DNA of 64,000 bases from Clostridia bacterium (GCA_900767715.1 CAAGAD010000005.1:151632-215631), one strand, 5' to 3'; counted from the stretch's first letter, positions 12,330-40,255 are shown. Notes: a model not told the origin generated them from the sequence alone. Translations and numbers: made by a program.

Positions 12330-12927
12330 ATTCCACATTCTTGATTGAGCCGTTTTGCATATAGATAGTTTTTGTTGTGGCGAAATCCACTTTTTGATTG
12401 CACGCAAGCAAGCATATTTGGCAGTTTGCGATAAGGTCGTCAAGGATTTTTTTGGATTGTTCGTTTGGCATATATTCCACTAACAATAAGTCCACTTTTC
12501 TAACGCAAAGACGCAATAGTGACAAAATGTATTTTTCTTCACTAGTCAAATTGCACGCCAATTTGTCTGCGAGAATATTTAAGCCGTATTTGTCTAACAC
12601 TTTAAGCGCGATTTTTTCGCTTTCGTTTTCGTCAAGGTGACGAATTATGTTGGGGTAGCAGAGATTGTACAACACGCTTTTGTTTTCAAACAGTGTCGCC
12701 ACTTTTGGTGCATACCCGATAAGGTGATGGTCTATTTCTGTTTTGATTTTGCCAGAATAGAATCTATCAATGCCAGCCACCGCACGCAAAACAAACGCGT
12801 TCCCAGACGTTTCGTCGCCGACAAGTTGAAGTTTGTCGCCACAATTTAGTTCCGCGCAAAAGTTATACAGCGAATAATACTGTTTGACGTATTTGATAGA
12901 TAAATTCTCAATCTTTAACACCTTCAC
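12328..12927 (-). CDS. ABC-ATPase-like protein with degenerate catalytic motifs
   Basis: ABC fold-like order (ENLSIKY..., Q-loop region, signature, Walker B). Walker A reads GDETSGNA with no Lys. The signature reads LTSEEK instead of LSGGQ. Walker B reads LLLVEY. The GTG start is uncertain. No permease partner is adjacent. Confidence 0.5.
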   Translation of the reverse strand: MKVLKIENLSIKYVKQYYSLYNFCAELNCGDKLQLVGDETSGNAFVLRAVAGIDRFYSGKIKTEIDHHLIGYAPKVATLFENKSVLYNLCYPNIIRHLDENESEKIALKVLDKYGLNILADKLACNLTSEEKYILSLLRLCVRKVDLLLVEYMPNEQSKKILDDLIANCQICLLACNQKVDFATTKTIYMQNGSIKNVE

Positions 12928-12957
12928 ATTTTAACATATATTACTGTTTAGCGCAAA

Positions 12958-13242
12958 TCATTTTTTGTTTAAAGTGTCCATTATGTTATGTAGCATATTT
13001 TTTTGATCATTGTTGAGATATGGCATGAGCGTGTCGGTCATCTTTTGCATATTTTGTTCGTCCCACCTGCCTTGGCTCTTCATTGCTTGCGTTTGGCGCA
13101 AAAGTTCTGTCATCAATTCTTGCTGGCTCAAATCTTTATATTTGTTGATAGTCTGTTCATAGTCTTGCGTCGTTTGCTCCGCGCTAGGCTTTGGTTCGTT
13201 CTTTGGTGGGGTATAATTATTTGAAAATGTCTTGAAATCCAT
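12958..13242 (-). CDS. Hypothetical 94-aa helical protein
   Basis: SD GAAGGTG lies 6 nt upstream. Q/M/N-rich helical sequence with no family recognised. Upstream of and co-oriented with the ABC-like gene. Confidence 0.55.
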   Translation of the reverse strand: MDFKTFSNNYTPPKNEPKPSAEQTTQDYEQTINKYKDLSQQELMTELLRQTQAMKSQGRWDEQNMQKMTDTLMPYLNNDQKNMLHNIMDTLNKK

Positions 13243-13260
13243 AAATCACCTTCACTAATA

Positions 13261-13287
13261 AATGTATGCTTGCATATAAATAAGTGT
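13261..13287 (-). promoter_or_regulatory. Candidate mother-cell (sigma-K/E-like) promoter for the 94-aa gene
   Basis: The minus strand reads AC, 17 nt, CATACATT, then 18 nt to the ATG. CATACA-T is the sigma-E/K-type -10 core. No good sigma-E -35 is present. Confidence 0.25.
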
Positions 13288-13302
13288 GTAAAGGGGTGAA
13301 TT

Positions 13303-13800
13303 ATGGACATTGCGACACTTTTGCCGTTGATAAATATGCTCAATCAAGCGAACAATAGTCAACCAGTTAACGCAAAACCCACCGAACAACCACTCGTAAT
13401 GTCGCAAGCAGATAAGGACTTCGTAAAGAAAAACACATCAATGTTTCCGGCGTCCTTTGTTCCGCCAAAAGACTTTCCGCGTGCGCAAACTAGCCAACAA
13501 CCACAGCCCGCTGACACGCTAAACCAAGCCGAGCCAGTAAGCGTCCAGCCCGCACCAAAGCAGAGCGCTCCAAATATGGACTTGAACGCACTTTTGCCCC
13601 TGATTAACAATATGGCTGGCAACGGCGTCAACACCGAACAGATTACCAAACTTATGTCTGGGTTTAACGGCTCGGGTGATATTGGCGGACTCATAAATTT
13701 GGTGTCATCAATTAGTCAAAGCAAACTCAAAAACAATAAGCCAAAACCTAACAAACAGATTATCAACAATCGCAATCAAGATATAATTTTTACAGACTAA
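13303..13800 (+). CDS. Hypothetical P/Q/N-rich protein with duplicated MD..LLPLIN motif
   Basis: SD AAGGGGTG. MDIATLLPLINML occurs at the N-terminus and MDLNALLPLINNM mid-protein. The linker is low-complexity. Confidence 0.5.
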   Translation: MDIATLLPLINMLNQANNSQPVNAKPTEQPLVMSQADKDFVKKNTSMFPASFVPPKDFPRAQTSQQPQPADTLNQAEPVSVQPAPKQSAPNMDLNALLPLINNMAGNGVNTEQITKLMSGFNGSGDIGGLINLVSSISQSKLKNNKPKPNKQIINNRNQDIIFTD

Positions 13801-13827
13801 AAAAAAGAACAAAATTGTTCTTTTTTA
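13801..13827. terminator. Bidirectional terminator between the 165-aa ORF and yhbY
   Basis: AAAGAAC-loop-GTTCTTT hairpin flanked by an A-run and a T-run. Confidence 0.6.
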
Positions 13828-13830
13828 GTT

Positions 13831-14121
13831 TTATAAAACGTGTTTAATATTTTTCTTATCGCTTAATTTGTAGAATATAATTTTTTTGCCGATTGTGCAT
13901 ACCACGTCTGCACCGAGTTTCGTTGCAATGGCACACAATTCGTCGTCATTTGGCATCGCAATCGATTGCAAAAGGCTAACTTTCACTAACTCGTGGTTGT
14001 AAAGCGCTTCACTTATTGCGCCGATTGTATTTTCGCCGAAGCCGTCCTTACCGACATTGACAACGGGCTTCAACGTGCTTGCCAAACTGCGAAGTTTGAT
14101 TCTATCTTTTTTATTTAACAT
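13831..14121 (-). CDS. yhbY: RNA-binding protein YhbY (CRM domain)
   Basis: The segment KDRIKLRSLASTLKPVVNVGKDG matches the YhbY family. Located downstream of obg, as is common in Bacillota. Confidence 0.85.
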   Translation of the reverse strand: MLNKKDRIKLRSLASTLKPVVNVGKDGFGENTIGAISEALYNHELVKVSLLQSIAMPNDDELCAIATKLGADVVCTIGKKIIFYKLSDKKNIKHVL

Positions 14122-14131
14122 AACTTTCTCC

Positions 14132-15400
14132 TTAATCTACCATTTCGAATTGTTGGTCACCGAACAATACCGTGTCGCCCTCAACAGCGCCTTTTTCCTT
14201 TAACATATCAAAGATACCTTTTTCTTTGATTTTTGACATAAAGTAGCCAAGCGATGCCGTGTCAGTGAACACGATTCCGCGTTGCAATTCGTCAATGTAT
14301 CCACCGCTCACGCGATAGGTATGCGGTGCGACCATTTCAATGTCGATGCTGGTCACATCTCTTACATCGATTCGCTCAATCTCTGGCTTGATTGGCTCTG
14401 GCACTAGCAAATTTTTTAACTCGTTCCAAGTGGTTTTCAAGAGTTCGTCCACGCCTTGATTAATTATTGCACAGATTGGAACAATAGGGAACTTTGTCTT
14501 TGTTTTGGTCTTGAAAGATTTTACGCGCTCGTCCAAATCGTCAACCATATCAATTTTTGTAAGAGCGATAATCTGTGGCAGTGTTGCTAGGCGCGCATTA
14601 AACTTTTTCAGTTCATCGTTAACGACTTTATAGTCAGCCACTGGGTCATTGCCGTTCACTCCGCTGATATCCACAACGTGAATGAGTAGGCGAGTGCGCT
14701 CAATGTGTGACAAGAAGTCGTGACCAAGTCCAACGCCTTCGCTCGCGCCTTCAATAAGCCCCGGAATGTCCGCCACAACAAAACTATTGTCGTAATATTT
14801 CGCAATGCCGATATTTGGTGTGAGTGTGGTAAACTCGTAATTCGCTATTTTAGGTTTTGCACTAGTGATGATTGATAGTATTGTGCTTTTGCCAACGTTT
14901 GGTTTACCGATGAGTGCGACATCTGCAATCATTTTGAGTTCAAGTTGCACTTGATAAGGCTTGCATACTTCGCCTAGTTGTGAGAATTGTGGTGCTTGAC
15001 GTGTAGGCGTTTTGAAAAACGCGTTACCGCGTCCACCGCGACCGCCTTGCAAGATTACCGCGCGTTCGCCGTCGGCATACATATCTGCCACAACCTTACC
15101 GGTATCGACATCGCGAATAACTGTGCCACAAGGTACTTCAATGACGATGTCTTGACCGTCCTTGCCGTTGCGAAGTCCGCCATCACCATTCTCACCATTT
15201 TCTGCCACAAATTTACGCTTGTATTGAAAATCTATGAGAGTGTTCTTGTTTCGACTAGCCAGGAAAATAACACTGCCACCTTTACCGCCATCGCCACCCG
15301 ATGGACCGCCATTTGCGACATATTTTTCTCTGCGCCAACGTACGACGCCGTCACCGCCGTTACCCGCTTTAATTGTAATTTTAACTTTATCTATGCTCAT
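14132..15400 (-). CDS. obg: GTPase Obg/CgtA
   Basis: Glycine-rich Obg fold (GGDGGKGG, GGRGGRGN), G1 GKPNVGKST, and a C-terminal OCT-like domain. Confidence 0.95.
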   Translation of the reverse strand: MSIDKVKITIKAGNGGDGVVRWRREKYVANGGPSGGDGGKGGSVIFLASRNKNTLIDFQYKRKFVAENGENGDGGLRNGKDGQDIVIEVPCGTVIRDVDTGKVVADMYADGERAVILQGGRGGRGNAFFKTPTRQAPQFSQLGEVCKPYQVQLELKMIADVALIGKPNVGKSTILSIITSAKPKIANYEFTTLTPNIGIAKYYDNSFVVADIPGLIEGASEGVGLGHDFLSHIERTRLLIHVVDISGVNGNDPVADYKVVNDELKKFNARLATLPQIIALTKIDMVDDLDERVKSFKTKTKTKFPIVPICAIINQGVDELLKTTWNELKNLLVPEPIKPEIERIDVRDVTSIDIEMVAPHTYRVSGGYIDELQRGIVFTDTASLGYFMSKIKEKGIFDMLKEKGAVEGDTVLFGDQQFEMVD

Positions 15401-16025
15401 ACTTATCCTTATAATATTTACAATAATTTTGCATCTTACACTCTTCGCATTTTGGTTTCTTGCTAATGCAATGATATCTGCCGAAGAGAATCAAACGCAA
15501 GTGAAGTTTGTCCAAACAATCTTTGTCAAATACTTCATAAATTTTTCGCTCCACTTCCAAAGGTGAATCTTTTTCATCGCTAATGCCCAATCGGTCGCAT
15601 ACGCGATGAACATGAGTGTCAACCGCCACAACAGGTAGCCCGAAGCACTCGTTTAAAACTACGTTTGCAGTCTTTCGTCCAACCCCGCGCAAAGTTTGTA
15701 AAACGTCGCGGTCAGTAGGCATTTCGCCATTGTACTTTTCCACGATTTCGCGCGAGCATTCCTTAATGGCTTTTGCTTTGGAATTGTAGAACCCACACGA
15801 GTGAATAATATCTTTCAAAACTTGCTCATCAAGGGCAGTCATTTTGTCCGGAGTGGGTGCTATGGCAAAAAGTTTTGGCGTCACCATATTGACGCGCTTG
15901 TCCGTGCATTGCGCAGACAAAATTGTGGCAATTAAAAGTTGGTAGGGTGTTTCATAATTTAGTTCACATCTAGCCACGGGAAACATCTCTTCCAAATACG
16001 TTAACAATTCTTTTTGTTTTTCCAT
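15387..16025 (-). CDS. nth: Endonuclease III
   Basis: LLIATILSAQCTD, HhH-GPD LRGVGRKTANVV, and a C-terminal Cys cluster CISKKPKCEECKMQNYC. It overlaps the obg start by 14 nt. The track start at 16043 is GTG inside the promoter. Confidence 0.9.
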   Translation of the reverse strand: MEKQKELLTYLEEMFPVARCELNYETPYQLLIATILSAQCTDKRVNMVTPKLFAIAPTPDKMTALDEQVLKDIIHSCGFYNSKAKAIKECSREIVEKYNGEMPTDRDVLQTLRGVGRKTANVVLNECFGLPVVAVDTHVHRVCDRLGISDEKDSPLEVERKIYEVFDKDCLDKLHLRLILFGRYHCISKKPKCEECKMQNYCKYYKDKYEHR

Positions 16026-16060
16026 AAGTTTATTATAACACACAAGAGAATCATTTTCAA
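16026..16060 (-). promoter_or_regulatory. Sigma-A promoter abutting the nth start codon (leaderless candidate)
   Basis: Minus strand: TTGAAA(16060-16055), 17 nt, TATAAT(16037-16032), 6 nt, ATG(16025). No SD. Confidence 0.5.
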
Positions 16061-16359
16061 TGATTTGTAAAAATTTGTTTACAATTAATTTTATTTAAAT
16101 ACTATCTATACATTAAAAAAATGTATTTAAAAATTATTTAGTATTATAAAAAAATAAATAAATTTAATTAGGAATAAATAATTATTTAATTTATAAATTT
16201 TTTACAATTAAATAAAATTAATATTAATTTAATTAAAAATATATAAAATTATTGGTAAAATATATTGTTTTTTAAATTAATTTAAATATTTTAACCAAAT
16301 AATCATTAATTTTCAAATTAATAAATAAACGAATATTTAAACAATTAATTTATTAATTA
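16061..16359. other. Extremely AT-rich intergenic tract (about 7% G+C by hand count)
   Basis: About 300 bp of almost pure A/T lie between the DUF3343 gene stop and the nth promoter. It contains TACATtaaaaaaATGTA and TCATTttcAATGA palindromes. ACAATTAA(T/A) recurs at about 16081, 16204 and 16341. Confidence 0.9.
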
Positions 16360-16623
16360 TTAAAATATTCTACGAATAACATCTCGCTGACCATAGTTGG
16401 AATCAATCACATACATACCGTTAAAGCCGGACATATTTCTTCTGGACAAAATTGATTGCGCAGTGTAAACGTCATTCGGGTTTATCATCACAGCCAGACT
16501 GCAACTAGACACAATGCTTTTTGGTGCGTTTACCATTGATGAATACACACCATAACTTTGCAAAATACTTCTAAAATTCATTAGTTCATTTCTCGACCTA
16601 AAAAGCATATAGGCGTTTCTCAT
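16360..16623 (-). CDS. DUF3343-like small protein (putative S/Se carrier-like)
   Basis: 87 aa. The pattern MLFRSRNELMNFRSILQSYGV...VNAPKSIVSSCSLAV resembles DUF3343 (F.s...A...e..L...gi....P.P..i...CG.ai). It is divergent from a cysteine desulfurase. Confidence 0.55.
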   Translation of the reverse strand: MRNAYMLFRSRNELMNFRSILQSYGVYSSMVNAPKSIVSSCSLAVMINPNDVYTAQSILSRRNMSGFNGMYVIDSNYGQRDVIRRIF

Positions 16624-16691
16624 AATATACCTCTCACAAAAAGCGTTTGTTCATAATACATAATATATAGAAAGGTATAAAATGGTGAATA

Positions 16692-17828
16692 ATGATTTAT
16701 TTAGATAATTCAGCGACGACATATTTCAAACCGCAAATCGTGAAAGCGAGCGTGATTGATGCGATAAATAATTACACGGGCAACGCGGGTAGAAGCGGTC
16801 ACAAAATCGCGCTTGCATCTGGCGAAAAAGTTATGCAAACAAGACAGACCGTCGCAGACTTTTTTGACGCGAGTTTTGATAGAGTAGTGTTCACGCATAA
16901 TTGCACCACCGCACTCAATATGGCGATACTCGGTAGCGTGGAAAAAGGTATGCATGTAATCACTACCACGATGGAGCATAACTCGGTTTTGCGTCCACTT
17001 AATCGACTGCAAGAAAACGGCGACATAGAACTCACAATCGTGAGTATGAATGCTGATGGTTGTGTGTCGGTTGATGACATCAAATCTGTTGTCAAGCCGA
17101 ACACAAAACTCGTGGTCATCACGCAGACATCGAACGTCACCGGAGCGTCGAACGATGTAAAAGCCATTGGTGAGTTTTGCCACCAAAACGGTATCAAGAT
17201 TATAGTCGATTGTGCGCAATCGGCGGGGCATAAAAAAATATCTATGCGCACCGATAACATTGACATAATTTGTTTTGCGGGGCACAAAGGTTTGTACGCG
17301 CTCACCGGCATTGGCGGAATGGTGCTTGCCGACGACGTCCACTTGCGCCCAGTCATCTTGGGTGGCACGGGTGTAGATAGCATTTCGCTAAAACAAGAAG
17401 AATTATTTCCGGACAATTTTGAGAGCGGAACATTACCAGTTATGCAAATTATTTCGCTCGGTGCGGGCGTGGAATATGTGAACAAAAATTTTGAATATAT
17501 AAATAATCGCATACAAAATTTAACTAAATATGCATTAAATAGGTTAAAATATTTAAATAATATAAAAATTTATTCAAATATTGATAATTGTGCGGGAGTT
17601 ATCTCGTTTAATCTAAATAATTGTGATTGTAATGATGTCGCGAATTTTTTAGACAAAAAATATAATATCGCAGTTAGAAGTGGTTTGCATTGCGCACCAT
17701 TAATTCACAAACAACTTGGCACTGCTGAGCAAGGTGGCGCGATAAGAATTTCGCTCACTCACCATAATAACGCCAACGAAATCGACCGATTGATAGACGC
17801 CCTAATTGACTATCAAAACAGCAACTAA
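16692..17828 (+). CDS. Class V aminotransferase-fold cysteine desulfurase / selenocysteine lyase family protein
   Basis: MIYLDNSATT N-terminus, PLP-lysine context FAGHKGLY, and active-site loop RSGLHCAP. Confidence 0.85.
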   Translation: MIYLDNSATTYFKPQIVKASVIDAINNYTGNAGRSGHKIALASGEKVMQTRQTVADFFDASFDRVVFTHNCTTALNMAILGSVEKGMHVITTTMEHNSVLRPLNRLQENGDIELTIVSMNADGCVSVDDIKSVVKPNTKLVVITQTSNVTGASNDVKAIGEFCHQNGIKIIVDCAQSAGHKKISMRTDNIDIICFAGHKGLYALTGIGGMVLADDVHLRPVILGGTGVDSISLKQEELFPDNFESGTLPVMQIISLGAGVEYVNKNFEYINNRIQNLTKYALNRLKYLNNIKIYSNIDNCAGVISFNLNNCDCNDVANFLDKKYNIAVRSGLHCAPLIHKQLGTAEQGGAIRISLTHHNNANEIDRLIDALIDYQNSN

Positions 17829-18628
17829 TCAAGCCAGTTTTTACTAATAGATTTTCTCCATAGCGGGCGAATCAAACACAAGAAACTCAAACCCAAAAGC
17901 AGACTTCCCCAAACGATATAATAATTTCTAAATGGCACAACCATACTCACGAACAATATGAGTAGTCCAGCCCAAAAATATCTAAACCAATTTTTCTTTT
18001 GCAAGCACAATTCTAATACGTCGATAAACTTGACTTTTGGTTTAAATTTGTATGCAATTTTGCTTTGCGGGTAGGAGTTTGTTTTAGCATACAGAAGGTG
18101 ATACATTTGTTCCCTATCCAAAAGTACGATGTCAAAATTTAGATTGCTCGCAAGCGCACGCACATCGCTTTTCCATTCGGTCGCTACGAGTATGATTTTA
18201 TCACAATCTTTTTGGTAGTTAGATAATATTTCAAACACCTTTTCTTGACTCGCGCTCTCGCAATAAATCATTTTCATTTTTTTATGGTTAAGTTTGAACG
18301 ACAAATAGTTTTTATATGCTCGCTTGTTCACTGCGTCAGGAAATAGTGTGGCAAAAAATTTCGCTCGAAGCCCAACTTCCATACTGGCAAGTTTGAATGC
18401 GCACTCATCAATCTTGGATTGCTCCTGCGCATTATTTTTTTTGAGAGAGTTACGGTGATTAGTGACTGCGGAAATGGTAGTGTTGATTGCCACCGAAATA
18501 GCGAACGCAATCAAAGCACACACAACGCCGTTGTAGATGTAGAATCTAAGCCAAGCGAACGCGACGAAAAAGATGATAAGGTATCTAAATGCTATGTCCA
18601 AGACAAAAGCCAAACGAGATTTATTCAT
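17825..18628 (-). CDS. Hypothetical polytopic membrane protein with central soluble domain
   Basis: Two N-terminal and two C-terminal TM segments. The central part (KIILVATEWKSDVRALASNLNFDIVLLDREQMYHL) is faintly reminiscent of the C-terminal pattern of Mrr-type nuclease domains. The start is ambiguous (TTG 18646 or ATG 18628). Confidence 0.45.
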   Translation of the reverse strand: MNKSRLAFVLDIAFRYLIIFFVAFAWLRFYIYNGVVCALIAFAISVAINTTISAVTNHRNSLKKNNAQEQSKIDECAFKLASMEVGLRAKFFATLFPDAVNKRAYKNYLSFKLNHKKMKMIYCESASQEKVFEILSNYQKDCDKIILVATEWKSDVRALASNLNFDIVLLDREQMYHLLYAKTNSYPQSKIAYKFKPKVKFIDVLELCLQKKNWFRYFWAGLLILFVSMVVPFRNYYIVWGSLLLGLSFLCLIRPLWRKSISKNWLD

Positions 18629-18693
18629 AAACACAATTTTTGCCAATTAATAAAAAGACAAACAAATAATCGCTTTTTTGCGTGTTTTATGGT

Positions 18694-18722
18694 TTGACAA
18701 TACGGCTATAATGTTTTAGAAT
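18694..18722 (+). promoter_or_regulatory. Sigma-A promoter abutting the pdp start codon (leaderless candidate)
   Basis: TTGACA(18694-18699), 17 nt, TAGAAT(18717-18722), 6 nt, ATG(18729). No SD. Confidence 0.55.
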
Positions 18723-18728
18723 AATAAT

Positions 18729-20024
18729 ATGAACATTTTATCAATCATCAACAAAAAGCGATATGGCAAGGTTTTGACCACCGAAGAAATAGAATTTGTA
18801 ATCAAGGGCTACACCAAAGGAAAAATCCCTAACTATCAAATGAGTTCACTCCTAATGGCGATTTGCACCAAAGGAATGAATTATGAAGAGACTCTCGCGA
18901 TGACTTTGGCAATGAAGAATAGTGGCAAGGTTTATATTTTTGACAAATCACGTAATTTCATTCTCGACAAACACAGCACGGGCGGAGTGGGTGACTCGAC
19001 AACCTTTATTGTGATGAGCACGCTCGCCAGCCTTGGCTACAAAATGGTGAAGATGAGCGGACGCGGGCTTGGACACACGGGTGGCACGCTAGACAAACTT
19101 GAAGTCTTCCCAAAGGTTAAGCACAATTACTCAATCGACCAAGTAGAAGATTTCTTGGACAAAAATAATGCCGTCATCATTGGTGCACAGGCGGTTGCCC
19201 CAGCGGACAAGAAAATTTATCTTTTGCGCGATGTGACATCAACAGTTGAGAGCATACCTTTAATCTGCGCCAGCATTCTGTCTAAAAAGTTGTCTTGCGG
19301 TGCTCACGGCATTGTGTTCGACATCACATGTGGCGATGGCGCATTTATGCACAACCTAAAAGACGCGCAAACCTTGGCTCACCTTATGCGTAAGATTATG
19401 CAACACGAGAAAGTACGCGCGTCATTCGTCATTACAGATATGAATTCACCACTTAGCCGTGGCATTGGCAGAGAATATGAGATTGCCGATGTCGTTCGCG
19501 TGTTGAATGGTGAGAGATGTGCGCTTCGTGAAGTCTCACTAAAACTGATTGTTGAAGCAATGCGTCTGCAAAAGCCGGAACTCAACGAAAAGTACGCCTA
19601 CATTCAAGCGAGCCAGGCGATAGATAACGGACAAGCCAAGCAAAAGTTTGTTGACATTCTACGTGCCCAAGGCGCTGTGGTTGACAACATTGATGACTAT
19701 CAAACTGTGCCAAAGACTAAATACGCAACGAAAATCTATGCGGACAAGTCGGGCAGAGTAAGGCGCGTGTCTGCACGAGCGCTAGGTGATGCCGTGCGCA
19801 TTTTGGGTGGCGGACGCCTTGTCGAAACTGACACAATCACGCCTTACGTGGGTATGGAAATCAATTACCGTGTTGGCGACAAAGTGAAGAAGGGCGATTG
19901 CCTAGCCGTTGTGCATTATGAAGATAAAAAGAAATTTAAACAAGTCGAGGCTCAAATCAAAAACGCATTCCAGATTGGCTGTTTCGCGTTCAAGCCTAAA
20001 CTTATAATTCAGGAAATAAAATGA
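18729..20024 (+). CDS. pdp: Pyrimidine-nucleoside (thymidine) phosphorylase
   Basis: IINKKRYGKVLTTEEIEFVIKGY N-terminus, HSTGGVGD phosphate-binding motif, 431 aa. Confidence 0.92.
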   Translation: MNILSIINKKRYGKVLTTEEIEFVIKGYTKGKIPNYQMSSLLMAICTKGMNYEETLAMTLAMKNSGKVYIFDKSRNFILDKHSTGGVGDSTTFIVMSTLASLGYKMVKMSGRGLGHTGGTLDKLEVFPKVKHNYSIDQVEDFLDKNNAVIIGAQAVAPADKKIYLLRDVTSTVESIPLICASILSKKLSCGAHGIVFDITCGDGAFMHNLKDAQTLAHLMRKIMQHEKVRASFVITDMNSPLSRGIGREYEIADVVRVLNGERCALREVSLKLIVEAMRLQKPELNEKYAYIQASQAIDNGQAKQKFVDILRAQGAVVDNIDDYQTVPKTKYATKIYADKSGRVRRVSARALGDAVRILGGGRLVETDTITPYVGMEINYRVGDKVKKGDCLAVVHYEDKKKFKQVEAQIKNAFQIGCFAFKPKLIIQEIK

Positions 20025-20452
20025 TTAAACTAGATAATGAAGAAAAGACCAAACAACTGGCGACAGATTTTGCCAAGAGGTTGAAGCCGGGTGACCTTGT
20101 CGTGCTTAACGGCGACTTGGGTGCGGGCAAAACCACTTTCACGCGTTATACTTTTGAAGCACTGGGCGCAAAAGGTGTGGTGAATAGTCCAACTTTTGCC
20201 ATTATGAAGGTTTACGAAAGTCCGGTTGCGGAGTTATATCATTTCGACACCTATCGAATTGACGTGAACGAAGCGATTGAGTCGGGTTTCGATGAAATAT
20301 TATCCAACCGACAAGGCAAAATAATTTTCATCGAGTGGAGCGAAAATATTGCACCACTTTTGCAAAATATCACTTACACCATAAATCTAAAATATATAAC
20401 CGAAAATGAACGAGAAATAGAGATTGTAAACAATGAACAAACTAATAATTAA
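20021..20452 (+). CDS. tsaE: tRNA t6A37 biosynthesis ATPase TsaE
   Basis: Walker A GDLGAGKTTFTR, and SPTF plus HFDxYR motifs. Confidence 0.9.
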   Translation: MIKLDNEEKTKQLATDFAKRLKPGDLVVLNGDLGAGKTTFTRYTFEALGAKGVVNSPTFAIMKVYESPVAELYHFDTYRIDVNEAIESGFDEILSNRQGKIIFIEWSENIAPLLQNITYTINLKYITENEREIEIVNNEQTNN

Positions 20453-21479
20453 CACTGTCCTGCCACAATTACAAATCGTGCTCACCAAGAACGAGCAGAT
20501 ATACACAACCGTGCTCGACGCGGACAAAAATCACAACGAGAAATTGCTCGGCGAAATTGATATGCTTTTGCGTAAAGCCGAACTCAAAATGCAAGACATT
20601 GATGCTTGCCTTTGTTTCGTTGGACCAGGCAGTTTCACAGGCATTAGAGTAGGTGTCGCCACAGCAAAGGGCTTTAAAGACGCACTGGGCATAAAAGCAT
20701 ACGGCATAAACACGCTGGAATATCTGTCACGCCTAGCAATGCGCGAAAACGCTGACGCACAAGTGTTTGCGTTGTATGGAAGCCTAAATAGTTATTTCGT
20801 GGCGCACATCAAGGAAGGCAAACTCGTTTATGAATCAACCAACCAAACACTCGACCAACTTATGAATATCGCGAACGGCAGGGAAATCTATGTTTTCAGT
20901 GGTAGTAGTCATTGTGAATTCGCCCAAGGCGTAGAATTGAACGCCGAAGTGTTGGTGTCGCTAGCCGACGAAGTCATTTCTCGCGGTGATGAGCGTCTAA
21001 CGCCTGTATATTTCCAACTTTCGCAAGCCGAAGCACAGAAGATTAATCGTGATGTAGATATCTCTGTTGCCAACGAAACGGACGCAAAAGAAATCACCGC
21101 CATTGATAACCTTATCTTTGAAGATAAATGGAGTGCAGACGCATACAGTCGCGAATGCAAAAACAACAAGATTTTCGTTGCCAAACTTTTAGATAAAATC
21201 ATTGGCTTCATCGATTTGGAAATCGTTGCCGATGAAATGAATATTGTGAAGGTCGGCGTCTTGCCTGACTATCGTCGAAATAGAGTGGCAATTCAACTTA
21301 TCAATCACGCGCTCGAATATGCAAAGCAGAACAACATTGCTAGCATTGGTTTGGAAGTGTCGTCAAACAATATTCCAGCGCAAAACTTGTACAAGAAAAT
21401 GGGTTTCGAGTCAACGCGCGTTAGAAAGCAATATTACAAAGACCACAGCGACGGCATTGAAATGCGAAAACAAGTCTAA
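20433..21479 (+). CDS. tsaB: TsaB (t6A37 biosynthesis) fused to a RimI-type GNAT acetyltransferase
   Basis: The N-terminal half has VGPGSFTGIRVGVATAKG (TsaB). The C-terminal roughly 145 aa has the GNAT core RRNRVAIQLINHALEYAKQNNIASIGLEVSSNNIPAQNLYKKMGF (RimI-like). It is a single uninterrupted 348-aa frame. Confidence 0.85.
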   Translation: MNKLIINTVLPQLQIVLTKNEQIYTTVLDADKNHNEKLLGEIDMLLRKAELKMQDIDACLCFVGPGSFTGIRVGVATAKGFKDALGIKAYGINTLEYLSRLAMRENADAQVFALYGSLNSYFVAHIKEGKLVYESTNQTLDQLMNIANGREIYVFSGSSHCEFAQGVELNAEVLVSLADEVISRGDERLTPVYFQLSQAEAQKINRDVDISVANETDAKEITAIDNLIFEDKWSADAYSRECKNNKIFVAKLLDKIIGFIDLEIVADEMNIVKVGVLPDYRRNRVAIQLINHALEYAKQNNIASIGLEVSSNNIPAQNLYKKMGFESTRVRKQYYKDHSDGIEMRKQV

Positions 21480-23014
21480 TTGTAGTCGTCGGGTAGGTCA
21501 TTTAATAGAAGTAGACAGTCGCCCGAGCGCAATAGTTTTGAAAAGAACTCTTTTGCCATAGCCAAGTTTTTGGCATACATTATATTTTTAAATCCAACTG
21601 AAAGCAGTCCGTCCGTGATTGCTTTTTTGTTGGTATCGTTCACGATGATGAAATAATCCACAAACTTGCCCGCGCTCGCACCGAAATTGAAGTTGATGTC
21701 GTATTGCATTTTACCACCTTCAACCATACCGGGCGAAGCGATGATTTTGCGCGCGTCAATCGATGACAAAACTTCGAGCGCAACGCGAATGCTGTCCGCG
21801 CTAGCGTTGTAACTGTCGTCAATTATGAGAACGCCGTTCGCGTTCTCAATCAACTCTAAACGATGTGGTTCGGCTTTGACATTGTCGATATATGGTAAGA
21901 TGTTTTCGATGTCGTCATAAAGACAAGCGCACGCAATGGCAAGGGTCAAATTTAGCACATTATGTTTACCAATTAGGCAAGTGTGGATTTCATATTCTTT
22001 GCCACCTGTGTGCAAAACAAAACTACTACCAGACAAACCAAATTTTATGCCCGTTGCAAAATAGTCGGCATTTTGATTAATTGAAACAGAAATTTTATTC
22101 AATTTTCTTTCATCGTACATTTTTTTCACGTATTCGTTATCGATATTGTAGATGACTGTGCCTTTGCAATAATCGGCGAGTTCTTTTTTCGTTTTATAAA
22201 TATTTTCTACCGAACCAAACGTTTCGATGTGTGCAGGACTAACGTTCGTGATGATTGCATTTGTTGGGTTTGTGAGATGACAAAGTTCTTCAATTTGATG
22301 GCGTTTTCTAGCACCCATTTCAGCCACAAAAATTTCGCAATTATTGTCCAAATTATTTATGGCTTTTGTCAGCCCGAGTGGAGTGTTATAACTTAACGGA
22401 CTTGACACGGCGTTGTGTCCGCCGAGTAGGGTAGATAGATAGTTTTTTACACTCGTCTTTCCCACACTCCCCGTTATGCCGATGACTTCAATATTTTGTG
22501 AGCGCAATTTTTGTTTTGCACGCGTCATAAATTTTTTGTTAATCAATTTTTCATAAGGAAACCAACTCATATTGATGATAAATATCACCACGTCTTTGTA
22601 TAGCATAGAACCGCATGCGATGAGTGTAAAACATTTGGTAGATGCAAAATGCGACAGCAATAAATTAATCGCAAAAATAATAATTAAATTAGAAATAAAT
22701 AATCTTTTTATATTATGTGTAAATTTTAGACTTATCTTCTTCGATGCAAAATAATTCACAATCTCGAAAACTATGTAAAAAATAACTAAAAAACACGAAA
22801 AAACGGTGTAAATAATAGCATTTTCTATAAAAATTAAGCAAATGCACGCCAAAACGCTAATTAAACTATTAATTATTATTCTTTTTTTATTTTTGAAAAA
22901 ATGTAAATATTTATTTATCTTATAATTTTTAATTTGGTAAAAATATAAATTATTTAATATGTAAAAAATATTTAACGGCAATAAAAGTGCGAACAAAATA
23001 ATTTTAGTTATCAT
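21476..23014 (-). CDS. murF: UDP-MurNAc-tripeptide--D-Ala-D-Ala ligase (MurF) with N-terminal polytopic membrane module
   Basis: P-loop GITGSVGKTS, EMGARKRHQIEEL...ITNVSPAHIETFGS, and DDSYNAS, which are MurF hallmarks. The first roughly 150 aa are 4-5 hydrophobic helices (IILFALLLPLNIF.., CICLIFIENAIIYTVFSCFLVIFYIVF.., LIIIFAINLLL..) in place of the usual soluble domain 1. Confidence 0.85.
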   Translation of the reverse strand: MITKIILFALLLPLNIFYILNNLYFYQIKNYKINKYLHFFKNKKRIIINSLISVLACICLIFIENAIIYTVFSCFLVIFYIVFEIVNYFASKKISLKFTHNIKRLFISNLIIIFAINLLLSHFASTKCFTLIACGSMLYKDVVIFIINMSWFPYEKLINKKFMTRAKQKLRSQNIEVIGITGSVGKTSVKNYLSTLLGGHNAVSSPLSYNTPLGLTKAINNLDNNCEIFVAEMGARKRHQIEELCHLTNPTNAIITNVSPAHIETFGSVENIYKTKKELADYCKGTVIYNIDNEYVKKMYDERKLNKISVSINQNADYFATGIKFGLSGSSFVLHTGGKEYEIHTCLIGKHNVLNLTLAIACACLYDDIENILPYIDNVKAEPHRLELIENANGVLIIDDSYNASADSIRVALEVLSSIDARKIIASPGMVEGGKMQYDINFNFGASAGKFVDYFIIVNDTNKKAITDGLLSVGFKNIMYAKNLAMAKEFFSKLLRSGDCLLLLNDLPDDYN

Positions 23015-23831
23015 GCTTTTCTCCCAAAAATCTTTTTAGTTCATAACAAAAATTTTGTCGGTTTTCCAAATATGCGAAATGACCATAGTTGGTGATTATA
23101 CATCTTGATTTTTCGATGTGTTTATGAAAATATGAACACATATACATAGGTGTTTCTTTGTCACGCTTACCCCAATAAATTAGAGTCGGGCATGAGATGT
23201 CTTTTACTAAAATTTTTAGGTCAAGATTAACTACATTTTTAAACGTCGTTTTGTCAATATTTTTTAGAGCCAAATAATCTGTCGAACCCAACACATTTTC
23301 AAAATGCAGGTCGCGATTGTCCAGCCACTTTTTTGTGCTGTTAAGACCATTCAATTTTTTAGTTCTAGGTTTAATGCCCGCGCCCGAACAGATGACCAAC
23401 TTTTTGACGAGTACGTCACGATTTAATAGCAGTGCCACTCGACACCCAAAACTATGACAGACGACAATCGGCTCGCAAATATTTAACAATTTCAAAATAT
23501 TTACGACAATATTTTTGTAGTCGAGCATTGAGAGTGCTTGGTGTGACGCGTAACTTTTGTTTGGCGGAAAACTAATTTTCAGTGTTGAAAAGTTTTTAAC
23601 GAACGGGTCGCACTCGTCGAACGAGTTTTTGTTTCCGCCCCAGCCGTGCAAGAACACTACGCAATCCTTCCCGCGTTTTTGATAATCGTAATCAATGATA
23701 AAACTTTTATAAATGTATTTCACATATTGATATATGCGTATGCGCGCGTTTTCGTCCAAAGTGGCATTGTGCTCACCGCTACAGACTTTGTCGAGTTGAC
23801 GAATGCAAAAATTTTTCGTCACGCACAACAA
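23004..23831 (-). CDS. Alpha/beta hydrolase
   Basis: VVFLHGWGGNKNSF oxyanion region, nucleophile elbow CHSFGC, and C-terminal GHFAYLE. It overlaps the murF start by 11 nt. The start is uncertain: TTG in the track, with no internal ATG before the conserved core. Confidence 0.7.
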   Translation of the reverse strand: MLCVTKNFCIRQLDKVCSGEHNATLDENARIRIYQYVKYIYKSFIIDYDYQKRGKDCVVFLHGWGGNKNSFDECDPFVKNFSTLKISFPPNKSYASHQALSMLDYKNIVVNILKLLNICEPIVVCHSFGCRVALLLNRDVLVKKLVICSGAGIKPRTKKLNGLNSTKKWLDNRDLHFENVLGSTDYLALKNIDKTTFKNVVNLDLKILVKDISCPTLIYWGKRDKETPMYMCSYFHKHIEKSRCIITNYGHFAYLENRQNFCYELKRFLGEKHDN

Positions 23832-23922: not shown

Positions 23923-24975
23923 ATGAAAAAAATAGGAATCATATTCGGTGGCGAATCGGTCGAACACGATGTGTCGATTGTCACCGCCTTGCAATGCTAT
24001 CAAATGATAAAATCGAACTTTGACATCAAACTTATCTACATAACGCACGATAACGAGTTCTATTTCGTGCCCTCAAATGTTCGTCCCAAAGACTTTGTAC
24101 GCTTGCCAAAGCACGCCAAACGCTTAAAAAACCTGCAATTCGGCGTTGACACAATCATCAATTGCTGTCACGGTGGGATAGGAGAGAACGGGCAACTCTC
24201 GGCAATGCTGTTGACGCTTGGCATTCGCTACACCAACGCGGATTGCCTATCAAGTATGCTGGCAATGGACAAATCGCTCACCAAACTCGCGCTCAAAGGC
24301 ACGAAAGTAAAGACTTTGCCCGCGAAAACCTATTATTCCTTGCCCGACAAAGCCGAACTCGACAAAACTGCCTATCCAGTCATCGTCAAACCGCGAAGCC
24401 TTGGCAGTAGCATAGGCGTGGTAAGGTGCGACACCGCCGACGACCTAATGCGTGCCATTCAAGCCGACCTAATGTATGACCGCGCTTGCATTGTGGAGAA
24501 GTGCATCGACCCGCTCATTGAGTACAACTGCGCCGTCTATCAGCACGGTGAAGATTTGATTGTCAGCGAAATCGAACAACCAGTCAAACACGACACGACA
24601 TTGAGTTTTGCCGACAAATATCTCATCTCCGCGCAAAAAGGAATGAAAGGTTCGTCACGCATTCTGCCTGCCGAGATTGATGACGCACTCCGCGACAAAA
24701 TCCACAACTGGACGCTCACGGCATACAAAGTTCTTGACCTAAAAGGCGTGGTAAGGGTGGATTATCTCTTCGACCCCACGACAAAATCTCTCTATCTCAA
24801 CGAAATCAACACCATACCGGGCTCGCTCGCGTTTTATCTTTTTGAACCGTTGGGAATCAGTTATGTGGAACTAATAAAAGACCTTATCGACGACTGCCAA
24901 AATTCACACATAGCAGACAACAAAATTACCAGATTTGACTCGCAAATCCTTGATATTGCTTTACATAAAAATTGA
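23923..24975 (+). CDS. ddl: D-alanine--D-alanine ligase
   Basis: MKKIGIIFGGESVEHDVS N-terminus, ATP-grasp core, and the LNEINTIPG motif. The upstream ORF-track extension (23803) overlaps the divergent gene. Confidence 0.92.
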   Translation: MKKIGIIFGGESVEHDVSIVTALQCYQMIKSNFDIKLIYITHDNEFYFVPSNVRPKDFVRLPKHAKRLKNLQFGVDTIINCCHGGIGENGQLSAMLLTLGIRYTNADCLSSMLAMDKSLTKLALKGTKVKTLPAKTYYSLPDKAELDKTAYPVIVKPRSLGSSIGVVRCDTADDLMRAIQADLMYDRACIVEKCIDPLIEYNCAVYQHGEDLIVSEIEQPVKHDTTLSFADKYLISAQKGMKGSSRILPAEIDDALRDKIHNWTLTAYKVLDLKGVVRVDYLFDPTTKSLYLNEINTIPGSLAFYLFEPLGISYVELIKDLIDDCQNSHIADNKITRFDSQILDIALHKN

Positions 24976-39451: not shown

Positions 39452-40255
39452 ATGTCAAGTTTATTAAATTTTTTCGAAAATAACTGGTACTGGATTGTTG
39501 GCGCAGTAGTATTGATGATAATTGTTTTGCTCATTATGCTCGTTGTGCTTGACAAGAAGGACATTAGATTGCAAGACGCAATTGAAGAGAAGCGCGTTCA
39601 AAAAGAAGCAGAGAAGAACGTAGCCAAAGCAGAAGCAATTGAGAACACAACAGTTGCTGAAGAAACTGTAGAAACAGTTGAAGAAAAGCCTGTTGCAAAG
39701 AAAGCCCCTGCAAAGAAATCTGCAAAGAAATCTGCAAAGAAAACAACTGCTAAAAAAGGCGCAAAGAAAGCCCCTACAAAGAAAGCAGAACCAGCAGTAG
39801 TAGCACCAGTTGCAACTGTTGAAACAGCACCAAAACTAGAAGAAAAGAAACCTGCTACAAAGAAGGCTACCGCTAAGACTAGCGCTAAAAAGCCAGTAGC
39901 GAAGAAGGTTGCTCCAAAGGCTGAAGTTAAAGAAGAACCTGTACTTGATGCAGAAGTTGTAAAGACTATTGCTGAACCAGAAGTTAAGAAAGTTGAAGAT
40001 AAAAAACCTGCAACTAAAAAAGCCCCTGCAAAAGCAAATGCTAAAAAGACAACCGCAAAGAAAACAACCGCAAAGAAAACCCCTGCTAAAAAAGCAGAAC
40101 CAAAAACTGCTCCAAAAGCAGAAGTGAAAGCCCCAGTTGCGAAGACCGCTCCAAAAGCAGAAGCAAAGAAGCCTGCAACTAAGACAACTGCTAAAAAACC
40201 AGTAGCAAAGAAAACTACTGCTAAAAAACCTGCAACTAAAAAGTCTGCAAAATAA
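39452..40255 (+). CDS. Membrane-anchored lysine/alanine/proline-rich repeat protein (histone H1/AlgP-like tail)
   Basis: One N-terminal TM segment (WYWIVGAVVLMIIVLLIMLVVL), an acidic linker, then about 190 aa of AKK/TAKK/PAKK repeats (e.g. KKTTAKKTTAKKTPAKKAEPK). Confidence 0.65.
   Translation: MSSLLNFFENNWYWIVGAVVLMIIVLLIMLVVLDKKDIRLQDAIEEKRVQKEAEKNVAKAEAIENTTVAEETVETVEEKPVAKKAPAKKSAKKSAKKTTAKKGAKKAPTKKAEPAVVAPVATVETAPKLEEKKPATKKATAKTSAKKPVAKKVAPKAEVKEEPVLDAEVVKTIAEPEVKKVEDKKPATKKAPAKANAKKTTAKKTTAKKTPAKKAEPKTAPKAEVKAPVAKTAPKAEAKKPATKTTAKKPVAKKTTAKKPATKKSAK

Follow-up and report, generated by a model that had tools for sequence, protein, structure and literature searches.

The locus considered here raises the question of how to read a gene whose product is MurF-like from its P-loop onward and a polytopic membrane protein before it. 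MurF, an essential and conserved antibiotic target, has been studied almost solely as a soluble three-domain form; in this canonical form, domain 1 binds the substrate at its UDP end. Forms that are built into the membrane and lack the UDP-binding domain are carried by a large share of bacterial diversity, including the pathogens Helicobacter pylori and Campylobacter jejuni, many gut Clostridia, and Patescibacteria, so that inhibitors and mechanistic models of the E. coli type may not transfer to these organisms.

The gene is probably the organism's housekeeping MurF, i.e., the enzyme that adds D-Ala-D-Ala, in the membrane-anchored form that is also found in Helicobacter and Campylobacter. The unusual architecture pointed out by the initial annotation of this DNA is real, but it is shared by a family that is very widespread and had been noted before in H. 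pylori, and of which the gene is an ordinary representative. The alternatives are taken up below where the evidence bears on them.

The Locus and Its Features

The window, by which we mean the whole 64,000-nucleotide stretch of DNA that was analysed, has a G+C content of 0.4275 and includes the following features.

21476–23014, minus strand: membrane-type murF gene, 512 aa plus stop (ORF, Pfam and NCBIfam domains, AlphaFold2 model, MurF enzymes as best PDB matches)
22520–23014, minus strand: N-terminal membrane module, aa 1–165, with five transmembrane (TM) helices, predicted N-out/C-in (hydropathy, AlphaFold2 helices, charge counts, conservation)
22655–23014, minus strand: extreme low-G+C tract, aa 1–120, G+C 0.183, GC3 about 0.22 (composition counts)
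21926–22477, minus strand: Mur ligase central ATP-binding domain, aa 180–363, with TGSVGKTS, AEMGA, and NVSPAHIETFGS (PF08245, Mur_ligase_M, E 2e-40)
21506–21865, minus strand: Mur ligase C-terminal domain, aa 384–503, with PHR and DDSYNAS (PF02875, Mur_ligase_C, E 1.2e-10)
23021–23025, minus strand: Shine-Dalgarno motif GGGAG, 6 nt 5' of the murF ATG and within the 3' end of the hydrolase gene
23004–23831, minus strand: EstV-like alpha/beta serine hydrolase, 272–275 aa, overlapping murF by 11 nt (Pfam Abhydrolase_1 and Abhydrolase_6)
23923–24975, plus strand: D-Ala-D-Ala ligase, ddl (Pfam Dala_Dala_lig_N and Dala_Dala_lig_C; gene call in locus L001)

The coordinates and length of murF given by the initial annotation were recovered exactly, as was its 11-nt overlap with the upstream gene (hydrolase stop codon at 23006–23004, murF ATG at 23014–23012), and the ORF layout bears out the divergent orientation of ddl. 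The mechanical ORF of ddl begins at 23803, and relatives are called at 350 aa; its best NCBIfam match is TIGR01205 with 220.7 bits, under the cutoff of 245.65.

The N-Terminal Membrane Module

Five TM helices lie within residues 1 to about 165, in agreement with the claim that a polytopic membrane module stands in place of MurF domain 1. The Kyte-Doolittle profile has five peaks, at residues 2, 46, 67, 105, and 129, and the AlphaFold2 model (pLDDT 90.2) has helices at residues 2–28, 33–41, 44–62, 66–89, 100–123, 126–134, and 136–172. A normal domain 1 hidden in the first 170 residues would have spoken against the claim, and no remnant of it was detected: Pfam gives no match within residues 1–170 of the 512-aa protein, the first 170 residues alone match no NCBIfam model, and hhalign assigns a probability of 0.2% to the alignment of the module profile with a profile of canonical domain 1. 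A Foldseek search of the PDB with the module found no solved structural relative (best E 3.2).

The net charge, counted over 40 sequences, is +3.5 for the loop at residues 26–45, +5.7 for that at 88–104, and +4.9 for the stretch following TM5, and it is about zero at the N-terminus and in the remaining loops. By the positive-inside rule, these three basic segments are predicted to be cytoplasmic. The four residues that are invariant in alignments across the family, Q27, Y31, T99, and R104, all fall within the predicted cytoplasmic loops, where K93 is conserved as well. They belong to two conserved and strongly basic loops, with the motifs QxxxY following TM1 and K-x-P-L-x-x-T-x-R-x-x-R preceding TM4.

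The Catalytic Domains

The part that begins with the P-loop is indeed MurF-like, its closest relatives in sequence and structure being solved MurF enzymes. These account for the top eight Foldseek matches in the PDB and the top seven phmmer matches, the best being 4qf5 (E 1e-23), 3zl8, 4cvm, and 1gg4 (E 2e-28), and the central domain aligns with residues 100–378 of E. coli MurF (1gg4). Among NCBIfam models the murF model TIGR01143 scores best with 201 bits, followed by murE (77), murC (73), and murD (71). The match pairs residues 165–501 with positions 64–401 of the 418 in the model and stays under the curated cutoff of 288.6 bits since model positions 1–63, at the N-terminal end, are unmatched.

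When the central and C-terminal domains are superposed on the canonical structures from E. coli (1gg4), Acinetobacter baumannii (4qf5), Pseudomonas aeruginosa (4cvm), and Thermotoga maritima (3zl8), the fit extends over about 357 columns with an rmsd of 2.2–2.9 Å. The P-loop (TGSVGKTS, of the GxxGKT/S pattern), AEMGA, AH(I/L)E-FGS, HN, R, and DDSYNA motifs are retained. The protein differs from these enzymes in that five TM helices occupy the place of domain 1, and the membrane type alone has the C-terminal motif NDLPD(D/N)Y, its own clade, and an obligate hydrolase neighbour. In the window protein the C-terminal domain is followed by NDLPDDY; NDLPD is invariant in alignment A1, and an end resembling it occurs in 80 of the 87 full-length module matches among those listed.

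From this homology, the adjacency of ddl, and the essential role that MurF of this type has in H. pylori and C. jejuni, we infer that the enzyme adds D-Ala-D-Ala to UDP-MurNAc-tripeptide.

Family Distribution and Phylogeny

The phylogenetic spread of the architecture, which the initial annotation had proposed to survey, proved wide and not unique to this gene. A profile of the module alone matched 2,016 protein clusters, 895 of them at E ≤ 1e-10, with the module always at the N-terminus, and among the matches listed all 87 of at least 450 aa contain the P-loop. Clostridia, Bacilli, Campylobacterota, and Patescibacteria are among the groups that carry it. In a neighbour-joining tree of catalytic domains, those of the membrane type form one clade apart from the canonical enzymes (bootstrap 294/300), and, as judged from the sequences, the fusion of the module to MurF catalytic domains arose once.

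Alignment A2, in which Q27, Y31, T99, and R104 are invariant, includes three Campylobacterota sequences. Eight loci have hydrophobic N-termini that the module profile made from this alignment misses at E ≤ 1e-4; five of these loci are from Patescibacteria MAGs and the others from MAGs labelled Gammaproteobacteria, Clostridia, or unclassified. All eight were assigned to the membrane type by hydropathy, tree position, and hydrolase neighbour, and the evidence for homology of their modules is therefore weaker.

The MurFs of Campylobacterota (about 480 aa) align with the window module and share its invariant Q, Y, T, and R together with a C-terminus of the ND(L/A)P type; their modules, however, are only about 14% identical to that of the window. 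We take the MurF of H. pylori to be HP0740 and its EstV to be HP0739. The membership of H. pylori MurF in the module family is deduced from the other Campylobacterota and from its description in the literature. PMC9448923, citing Blair et al. (2018, Mol Microbiol 110:114), presents it as a protein of the inner membrane whose N-terminal part has four TM domains, so that the earlier statement that characterised MurF enzymes are cytoplasmic was too broad. The H. pylori enzyme is essential and a member of the Csd5 complex (PMC9448923, PMC9507126). In C. jejuni, ddl is Cj0798c, the hydrolase is Cj0796c, which "may be essential", and murF is Cj0795c, which is in a list of essential genes (PMC5530802, PMC3229698).

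Both organisms resemble the window in having several N-terminal TM helices and the MurF catalytic domains in one polypeptide, and C. jejuni also in having ddl, an alpha/beta hydrolase, and murF as neighbours. The differences are that ddl is co-directional in C. jejuni and divergent in the window, and that H. pylori has a Csd5/CcmA shape complex, with none known in the uncultured Clostridia lineage of the window. The searchable literature yielded no biochemical assay of a membrane-type MurF.

The Partner Hydrolase and the Gene Neighbourhood

The near-constant presence of a serine hydrolase gene upstream is the least explained feature of the locus. Such a gene lies directly upstream of murF in 48 of 51 membrane-type loci versus none of 32 canonical murF loci. 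Its best NCBIfam match by far is NF058580, the EstV family lipase, with 119 bits here and 140 bits in a Gracilibacillus relative; as the score is under the equivalog cutoff of 300, we call the protein EstV-like rather than a curated member. The catalytic triad, Ser127/Asp224/His251, is 97–100% conserved over 38 sequences, together with H-S-x-G, and is shared with the H. pylori family V carboxylesterase EstV. PMC3741291 reports that EstV hydrolyses short-chain (C2–C6) esters in vitro. Apart from the remark on Cj0796c of C. jejuni, no published functional link between EstV and MurF was found.

Of the 43 loci that the module profile recognises, 29 have ddl as the next gene downstream, and 33 have it somewhere in the locus. 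The window locus is flanked by core housekeeping genes (tsaB-rimI, tsaE, gyrB, and gyrA), with synteny kept in relatives at 97% and 49% identity. An alphaproteobacterial MAG (locus L043) has a division and cell wall (dcw) cluster, mraZ-rsmH-ftsL-ftsI-mraY-murD-ftsW-murG, whose usual murF slot holds no murF; 1.3 kb upstream of this cluster is the hydrolase-murF pair. An Rfam scan of the 64-kb window returned no RNA element.

Proposed Function and Its Alternatives

In the reading that we favour, namely a housekeeping MurF, the five-helix module would take the place of soluble domain 1 and hold the ATP-binding and C-terminal domains at the cytoplasmic membrane face, where the enzyme would ligate D-Ala-D-Ala, the product of the neighbouring Ddl, to UDP-MurNAc-tripeptide, beside MraY, the user of the product. 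The coupling of a membrane-tethered MurF to MraY, put forward by the initial annotation, is plausible. The basic conserved loops would do the work of domain 1, holding the substrate by its UDP end, and may also dock partner proteins, and the co-translated EstV-like hydrolase would act with MurF in some step.

That the pairing with a catalytically intact hydrolase is so strict suggests that the chemistry of the membrane type may not be identical to that of canonical MurF. The near-perfect linkage to this hydrolase, whose C. jejuni counterpart is reported as possibly essential, indicates a gap in the textbook pathway that is open to testing. In its boldest form, which we regard as rather unlikely, MurF and its obligate hydrolase would be a two-protein membrane machine running a variant of the final step in peptidoglycan precursor synthesis. 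If so, the machine would either use a lipid-linked or membrane-held substrate or carry out one more essential reaction, hydrolysis or acyl transfer; Campylobacterota, many Clostridia and Bacilli, and Patescibacteria would share the variant, and the hydrolase would be a previously unrecognised core cell-wall enzyme.

The closely related proposal that the loss of domain 1 is functional rather than compensated, and that MurF and hydrolase perform a modified last step, is likewise unlikely, slightly more so. The step might be the addition of D-Ala-D-Ala to a substrate held at the membrane, either lipid-linked (undecaprenyl-PP-MurNAc-tripeptide) or in some other way, or it might be one that needs an additional hydrolytic or acyl-transfer reaction. 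The complete absence of the domain that binds the UDP end is consistent with this proposal, as are the basic conserved loops at the membrane surface, the triad-intact hydrolase found upstream in the 48 of 51 loci and in none of the canonical ones, and the possibly essential counterpart of that hydrolase in C. jejuni. MurT offers an analogy: it has the Mur ligase fold, lacks the nucleotide-binding domain 1, as does the window protein, and works on a membrane-held substrate, lipid II. MurT, however, is soluble and paired with the glutaminase GatD, whereas the window locus has neither a MurT match nor a GatD-like or flippase-like partner gene; the NCBIfam MurT model is absent from the 20 families that match the window protein, and the Gracilibacillus relative reaches 37 bits against a MurT cutoff of 800. 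The catalytic domains, moreover, are nearest to true MurF and keep its motifs, basic loops could bind the diphosphate of UDP as readily as that of a lipid, and the papers on H. pylori and C. jejuni (PMC5530802, PMC9448923, PMC9507126) treat MurF as an ordinary UDP-MurNAc-pentapeptide synthetase.

Membrane attachment of a Mur ligase fold is also found elsewhere. In the poly-gamma-glutamate synthetase PgsB/CapB, a Mur ligase central domain stands behind an N-terminal membrane anchor; this anchor is a single helix, in contrast to the five of the window protein, and the reaction is another one. No PgsB/CapB model is among the NCBIfam matches of the window protein, for which MurF is clearly the best family.

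Quite unlikely, too, is a role as an accessory paralogue serving, for instance, an alternative precursor pathway or resistance module, with a canonical murF elsewhere doing the housekeeping. The genome is incomplete, with 64 kb visible, and this window contains no second murF or other Mur ligase paralogue. The TIGR01143 score under its cutoff and the occurrence of a compact hydrolase-murF-ddl unit in phylogenetically scattered MAGs, as might be expected of a mobile module, would suit such a role. Paralogues of murF do occur on plasmid records, and some of them belong to glycopeptide-resistance clusters; the membrane module, however, is covered by none of the 72 matching plasmid records, and plasmid carriage was rejected on this basis. 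The Ddl fits best as an ordinary D-Ala-D-Ala ligase, the Van-type models being far under their cutoffs. Housekeeping flanks with conserved synteny, the dcw cluster of L043 without a murF, and the essential MurF of the same type in Campylobacterota also argue against an accessory role.

Base Composition of the 5' Part

The DNA encoding the module is extremely poor in G+C. The initial annotation had counted about 18% for positions 22690–23010, with 8–30% per line of 60 nt, and the computed values agree: 0.184 overall and 0.08 to 0.27 in 60-nt blocks. The codons of residues 1–120 have 18% G+C versus 40% in the remainder of murF; the catalytic part is thus the richer one, as had been noted, although, set against the measured 0.405, the estimate of mid-40s was slightly high. 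Windows of 360 nt with at most 20% G+C make up 0.55% of those in the 64 kb, and they are confined to the module DNA and to the spacer at 16044–16691 and its borders.

Hydrophobicity was considered as a cause and rejected in view of the hydrophobic 40-codon windows in the window's genes, 40 in number including two from the module, which have a mean G+C of 0.43 and a GC3 of 0.53. Nor is low G+C a property of the whole family: over 38 loci the difference between module and catalytic part averages −0.043 in G+C and −0.003 in GC3, and the low value is absent from 37 other family members outside the clade of the window. Within this clade, the drop is common to relatives at 81% and 49% protein identity (GyrB about 83%). 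Identity to these two relatives is 71% and 31% in the module and 85% and 56% in the catalytic part, and the module evolves at about twice the rate.

It was suggested that the module is of different origin or under different constraint, and the two halves of this suggestion fared differently. Acquisition of the 5' part from a low-G+C donor, through recent recombination or horizontal transfer, would account for a sharp fall within one gene, from 0.40 to 0.18 with third codon positions included, that is unseen in other family members. The same drop, however, is found at 81% and 49% identity, by which time a foreign composition would have been lost, so that something must actively maintain the drop. 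Both parts of the protein, moreover, are closest to the same relatives, and the family's invariant residues are present in the module. Recent transfer is thus highly improbable and already largely ruled out, and a different origin does not agree with the family-wide homology and the single fusion either. A different constraint does fit, because the drop is shared within the clade and absent from the 37 other members.

The low G+C of the module fits best as a clade trait in which weak constraint on residue identity is combined with AT-biased mutation, given the roughly twofold faster evolution of the module relative to the catalytic part. The mean G+C between genes is 0.337, and some spacers fall to 0.18; since the GC3 of the module, about 0.22, is below this mean, simple drift is perhaps not the whole story. 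The composition is a local evolutionary curiosity and gives no indication of gene transfer.

Reading Frame and Start Codon

There is next to no probability that the architecture is an annotation artefact, with the true start of murF near residue 150–165 and an independent small membrane protein encoded upstream, and this reading is rejected already on the sequence evidence. ATG codons do occur inside the ORF, at residues 137, 149, and 163. Yet the scan of candidate starts found a Shine-Dalgarno motif at the first murF ATG only and none before the internal ATG and GTG codons at residues 86–163; neither a separate small membrane ORF nor a downstream start was found. The murF frame runs through 165 codons of 22% G+C DNA with no stop, the other five frames having 7–25, and none of 200,000 composition-preserving shuffles of this stretch was stop-free. 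In the AlphaFold2 model the helix at residues 136–172 is unbroken and continues across the junction into the catalytic domain. The fusion is kept in all 87 full-length module-profile matches among those listed; the 61 shorter ones among those listed resemble truncated genes, most of them stopping within the linker, at the P-loop, or shortly beyond it.

Domain architecture of the window MurF

The initial annotation had described the open reading frame at 21476..23014 (-) as a 512-aa MurF in which membrane helices replace the soluble domain 1, and both the reading frame and the observation as a whole are borne out. The protein is one of the membrane-type MurFs, a group that is known but has received little description, and the main gain of this analysis lies in comparison, which shows the family to be very large, to have arisen once, to lack domain 1 altogether and to be accompanied almost invariably by an EstV-like serine hydrolase. 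The features concerned are:

21476..23014, minus strand: murF, 512-aa ORF
22520..23014, minus strand: membrane module, residues 1 to ~165
Residues 180-363 of MurF: Mur_ligase_M (Pfam)
Residues 384-503 of MurF: Mur_ligase_C (Pfam)
23004-23831, minus strand: EstV-like alpha/beta serine hydrolase
23923..24975, plus strand: ddl, D-Ala-D-Ala ligase

As initially described, murF overlaps the upstream hydrolase gene by 11 nt and ddl is divergent. The low-G+C 5' stretch of murF is certainly coding: over its 165 codons the murF frame has no stop, stop counts in the other five are 7-25, and all 200,000 shuffles of the stretch contained stops. The first ATG is the only start equipped with a Shine-Dalgarno sequence (GGGAG, 6 nt upstream). 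Downstream, murF overlaps by 4 nt a convergent gene, 20433-21479 (+), whose product is a TsaB-like domain (Pfam TsaD family) fused to a RimI-like GNAT acetyltransferase; tsaE lies just upstream of this fusion gene, which is also kept in two of the relatives' loci (L001 and L083).

The window MurF has no Pfam match before residue 180. Its best NCBIfam family is TIGR01143 (murF; 201 bits, cutoff 288.6), and only model positions 64-401 of 418 align, to residues 165-501; the first 170 residues, searched separately, matched no NCBIfam family. When a profile built from 44 membrane modules was compared by hhalign with one from 25 canonical MurF N-termini, the probability was 0.2% over 12 columns. The replacement of domain 1 thus stands, with no trace of it in Pfam, NCBIfam or hhalign.

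The remainder is, as had been proposed, a normal MurF. Foldseek of the whole model against the PDB returned first the MurF of A. baumannii, T. maritima, P. aeruginosa and E. coli (E 1e-23 to 2e-20), with MurE and MurC ranking next, and the ~357 aligned columns cover MurF domains 2 and 3 only. Residues 175-447 align with residues 100-378 of E. coli MurF (1gg4, E 2e-28), with the P-loop, AEMGA, NVSPAHIETFGS, GxHN, the PHR arginine and DDSYNAS kept, and the catalytic core is accordingly predicted to be of true MurF type.

Topology and conserved residues of the membrane module

Five strong hydropathy peaks mark the N-terminal part of the protein. AlphaFold2, given an alignment of 40 sequences, produces a confident model (pLDDT 90.2, pTM 0.83) with helices at residues 2-28, 33-41, 44-62, 66-89, 100-123, 126-134 and 136-172, the last continuing directly into the ligase fold. 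Modelled alone (pLDDT 90.2), the module has no solved structural relative by Foldseek (best E 3.2, TM-score <=0.35). Averaged over 40 sequences, net charge is +3.5 in loop 26-45, +5.7 in loop 88-104 and +4.9 after TM5, and near zero at the N-terminus and in the two short loops. Because this pattern obeys the positive-inside rule, the predicted topology has the N-terminus outside, five TM helices and cytoplasmic catalytic domains, the last in agreement with their need for ATP. Within the 40-sequence alignment, Q27, Y31 and T99 are invariant and K93, R104 and P140 nearly so, as is the C-terminal NDLPD invariant; all the invariant module residues fall within the two predicted cytoplasmic loops.

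Distribution and origin of the family

A first homology search with the window MurF returned 2,100 proteins, some of them named MurF of Clostridia MAGs by NCBI; the best 120 of these are almost all 480-560 aa long, and nearly all have several hydrophobic segments preceding the P-loop. A module-only profile, searched against 1.84 billion representative proteins, matched 2,016 clusters at E<=1e-3, of which 895 reach E<=1e-10, with the module N-terminal every time. Among the matches listed, all 87 of at least 450 aa have the P-loop, and most of the 61 shorter ones stop in the linker, at the P-loop or shortly beyond it, with the appearance of truncated genes; therefore none of these matches shows the module by itself or joined to a different enzyme.

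When one genome was scanned for each species, carriers came to light in Oscillospiraceae, Lachnospiraceae, Christensenella and Peptococcaceae; in Bacilli, among them a cultured species, Gracilibacillus massiliensis, as well as RF39-like MAGs; in MAGs labelled Bacteroidales, Alpha- and Gammaproteobacteria and Bdellovibrionota; and in Campylobacterota and Patescibacteria. The window organism itself is of an uncultured Clostridia lineage, its GyrB being 84% identical to that of a Clostridia MAG and 66% to that of Candidatus Onthoplasma (Christensenellales). Since a neighbour-joining tree of the catalytic domains sets 44 membrane-type apart from 25 canonical MurFs (bootstrap 294/300), the module-ligase fusion had a single origin.

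The canonical order in Bacillus subtilis is ddl-murF. In the cultured Bacilli strain G. massiliensis Awa-1 (NZ_CZRP01000013.1), a tractable candidate for experiments, hydrolase, membrane-type murF and ddl are co-directional.

Helicobacter is already known to have a MurF of this kind. In one Campylobacterota MAG, a locus encodes Ddl, the hydrolase and a membrane-type MurF with the motifs LQWYDYK, KKLVLTWRVRRF and a C-terminal NDAPNF, whose near homologues are ~480-aa proteins of Sulfuricurvum and Helicobacteraceae; three such Campylobacterota proteins can be aligned with the window module and have the invariant residues in common. The H. pylori MurF has been described as residing in the inner membrane, with four TM domains at its N-terminus (PMC9448923, citing Blair et al. 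2018); it is essential, and the transmembrane protein Csd5 recruits it into the cell-shape complex (PMC9507126). The C. jejuni gene order is ddl (Cj0798c), alpha/beta hydrolase (Cj0796c), murF (Cj0795c); of two strain variants, one had more of both Cj0796c and MurF than the other, and the authors remark that this hydrolase could be essential (PMC5530802). Both Cj0795c and Cj0798c are in a C. jejuni essential-gene list (PMC3229698). Because the Helicobacter and Campylobacter enzymes are of the membrane type, the initial premise that MurF enzymes are cytoplasmic was too broad. In our literature search, no paper came up that describes how membrane-type MurF lacks domain 1, how widely it occurs or its link with the hydrolase.

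The partner hydrolase

Neighbour clustering places a co-directional gene for a ~250-aa alpha/beta hydrolase directly upstream of membrane-type murF; in most loci the next gene downstream is ddl. In a recount on six-frame translations, the hydrolase is immediately upstream in 48 of the 51 loci with a hydrophobic MurF N-terminus (loci L003-L082; of the three exceptions, two are truncated upstream by a contig edge) and within +/-10 kb of canonical murF in 0 of 32.

The best NCBIfam match of the window hydrolase is the EstV family lipase (119 bits; cutoff 300), EstV being an H. pylori carboxylesterase that favours C2-C6 esters (PMC3741291). Its nearest solved relatives are generic esterases, and matches to valacyclovir hydrolase are weak. 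Conservation is 97-100% for Asp224, His251 and the nucleophile elbow H-S-x-G, and for the D185-Y186 pair as well; the family is therefore predicted to be catalytically active.

In six loci, mostly of Patescibacteria MAGs (L040, L041, L042, L052, L056 and L082), the gene after the pair is not Ddl; a DegT/PseC-type aminotransferase and a FemAB-family protein follow, and several have a seryl-tRNA synthetase upstream and an FtsQ-like gene after (both by eye from the sequence). This is again a cell-wall context. Most of the MurF N-termini there are hydrophobic, yet missed by the module profile.

Probable housekeeping role and possible mechanism

No second Mur ligase was seen within the 64-kb window, and indirect evidence is consistent with the membrane-type enzyme being the housekeeping MurF of this organism: Campylobacterota rely on this type as their essential MurF, most loci have ddl linked to it, and core genes flank the window murF with conserved synteny. 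The MurFs on plasmid records, likewise in agreement, were all canonical. In an Alphaproteobacteria MAG (L043, 648-kb contig), a dcw cluster (12432-20642; mraZ-rsmH-ftsL-ftsI-mraY-murD-ftsW-murG) has neither murE nor murF between ftsI and mraY, and the hydrolase and membrane-type murF are found 1.3 kb ahead of it, upstream of mraZ; such a position is only suggestive of a housekeeping MurF, murE being absent too.

The basic, aromatic-containing cytoplasmic loops may replace domain 1 by gripping the UDP-diphosphate end of the substrate; instead of this, or besides it, they might dock the hydrolase or other partners. Anchoring would put pentapeptide synthesis next to MraY, and in H. pylori it also allows membrane proteins to position MurF (PMC9507126). 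It is improbable, in our view, that domain 1 was lost because the enzyme acts on a lipid-linked substrate, or that an additional essential step comes from the hydrolase.

Base composition of the module

The very low G+C initially noted for the module DNA was measured at 0.184 over 22690-23010 (60-nt blocks 0.08-0.27), far below the catalytic part, which at 0.405 does not reach the mid-40s % first estimated; the window averages 0.4275, and equally AT-rich 360-nt windows make up only 0.55% of the 64 kb.

The best reading is that residue identity and codon choice are weakly constrained here while mutation is AT-biased, in line with the different constraint originally suggested: identities to two relatives are 71 and 31% for the module against 85 and 56% for the catalytic part, so that the module evolves about twice as fast. 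Intergenic G+C is 0.337 overall and as low as 0.18; the module GC3 (~0.22) lies below that mean, which this reading does not fully cover. The alternative first suggested, a different origin, fails, as both halves have identical nearest relatives and these keep the drop (0.233 vs 0.391 at 81% protein identity; 0.242 vs 0.382 at 49%). Low module G+C is thus a property of the clade, and since synonymous sites would saturate over such divergence, the bias is maintained and not a relic of transfer. It is not family-wide, the module in 38 loci being only 0.043 below the catalytic part, with equal GC3. Nor does hydrophobicity account for it: among the window's genes, 40 hydrophobic stretches of 40 codons (two from the module) average G+C 0.43 and GC3 0.53, against 0.14-0.26 and ~0.22 in the module.

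A second low-G+C coding patch (17502-17600, G+C 0.13) encodes the N/K/I/Y-rich residues 271-300 (NNRIQNLTKYALNRLKYLNNIKIYSNIDNC) of a class V aminotransferase/cysteine desulfurase-like protein, 16692-17828 (+), and may reflect the same relaxed-constraint AT drift. The adjacent 648-nt intergenic spacer, 16044-16691 (G+C 0.21), matched no Rfam family and holds the lowest 360-nt G+C of the window (0.094, window start 16006). The lowest GC3, 0.26 against a coding mean of 0.49, is that of 39452-40255 (+), whose product has a hydrophobic N-terminus.
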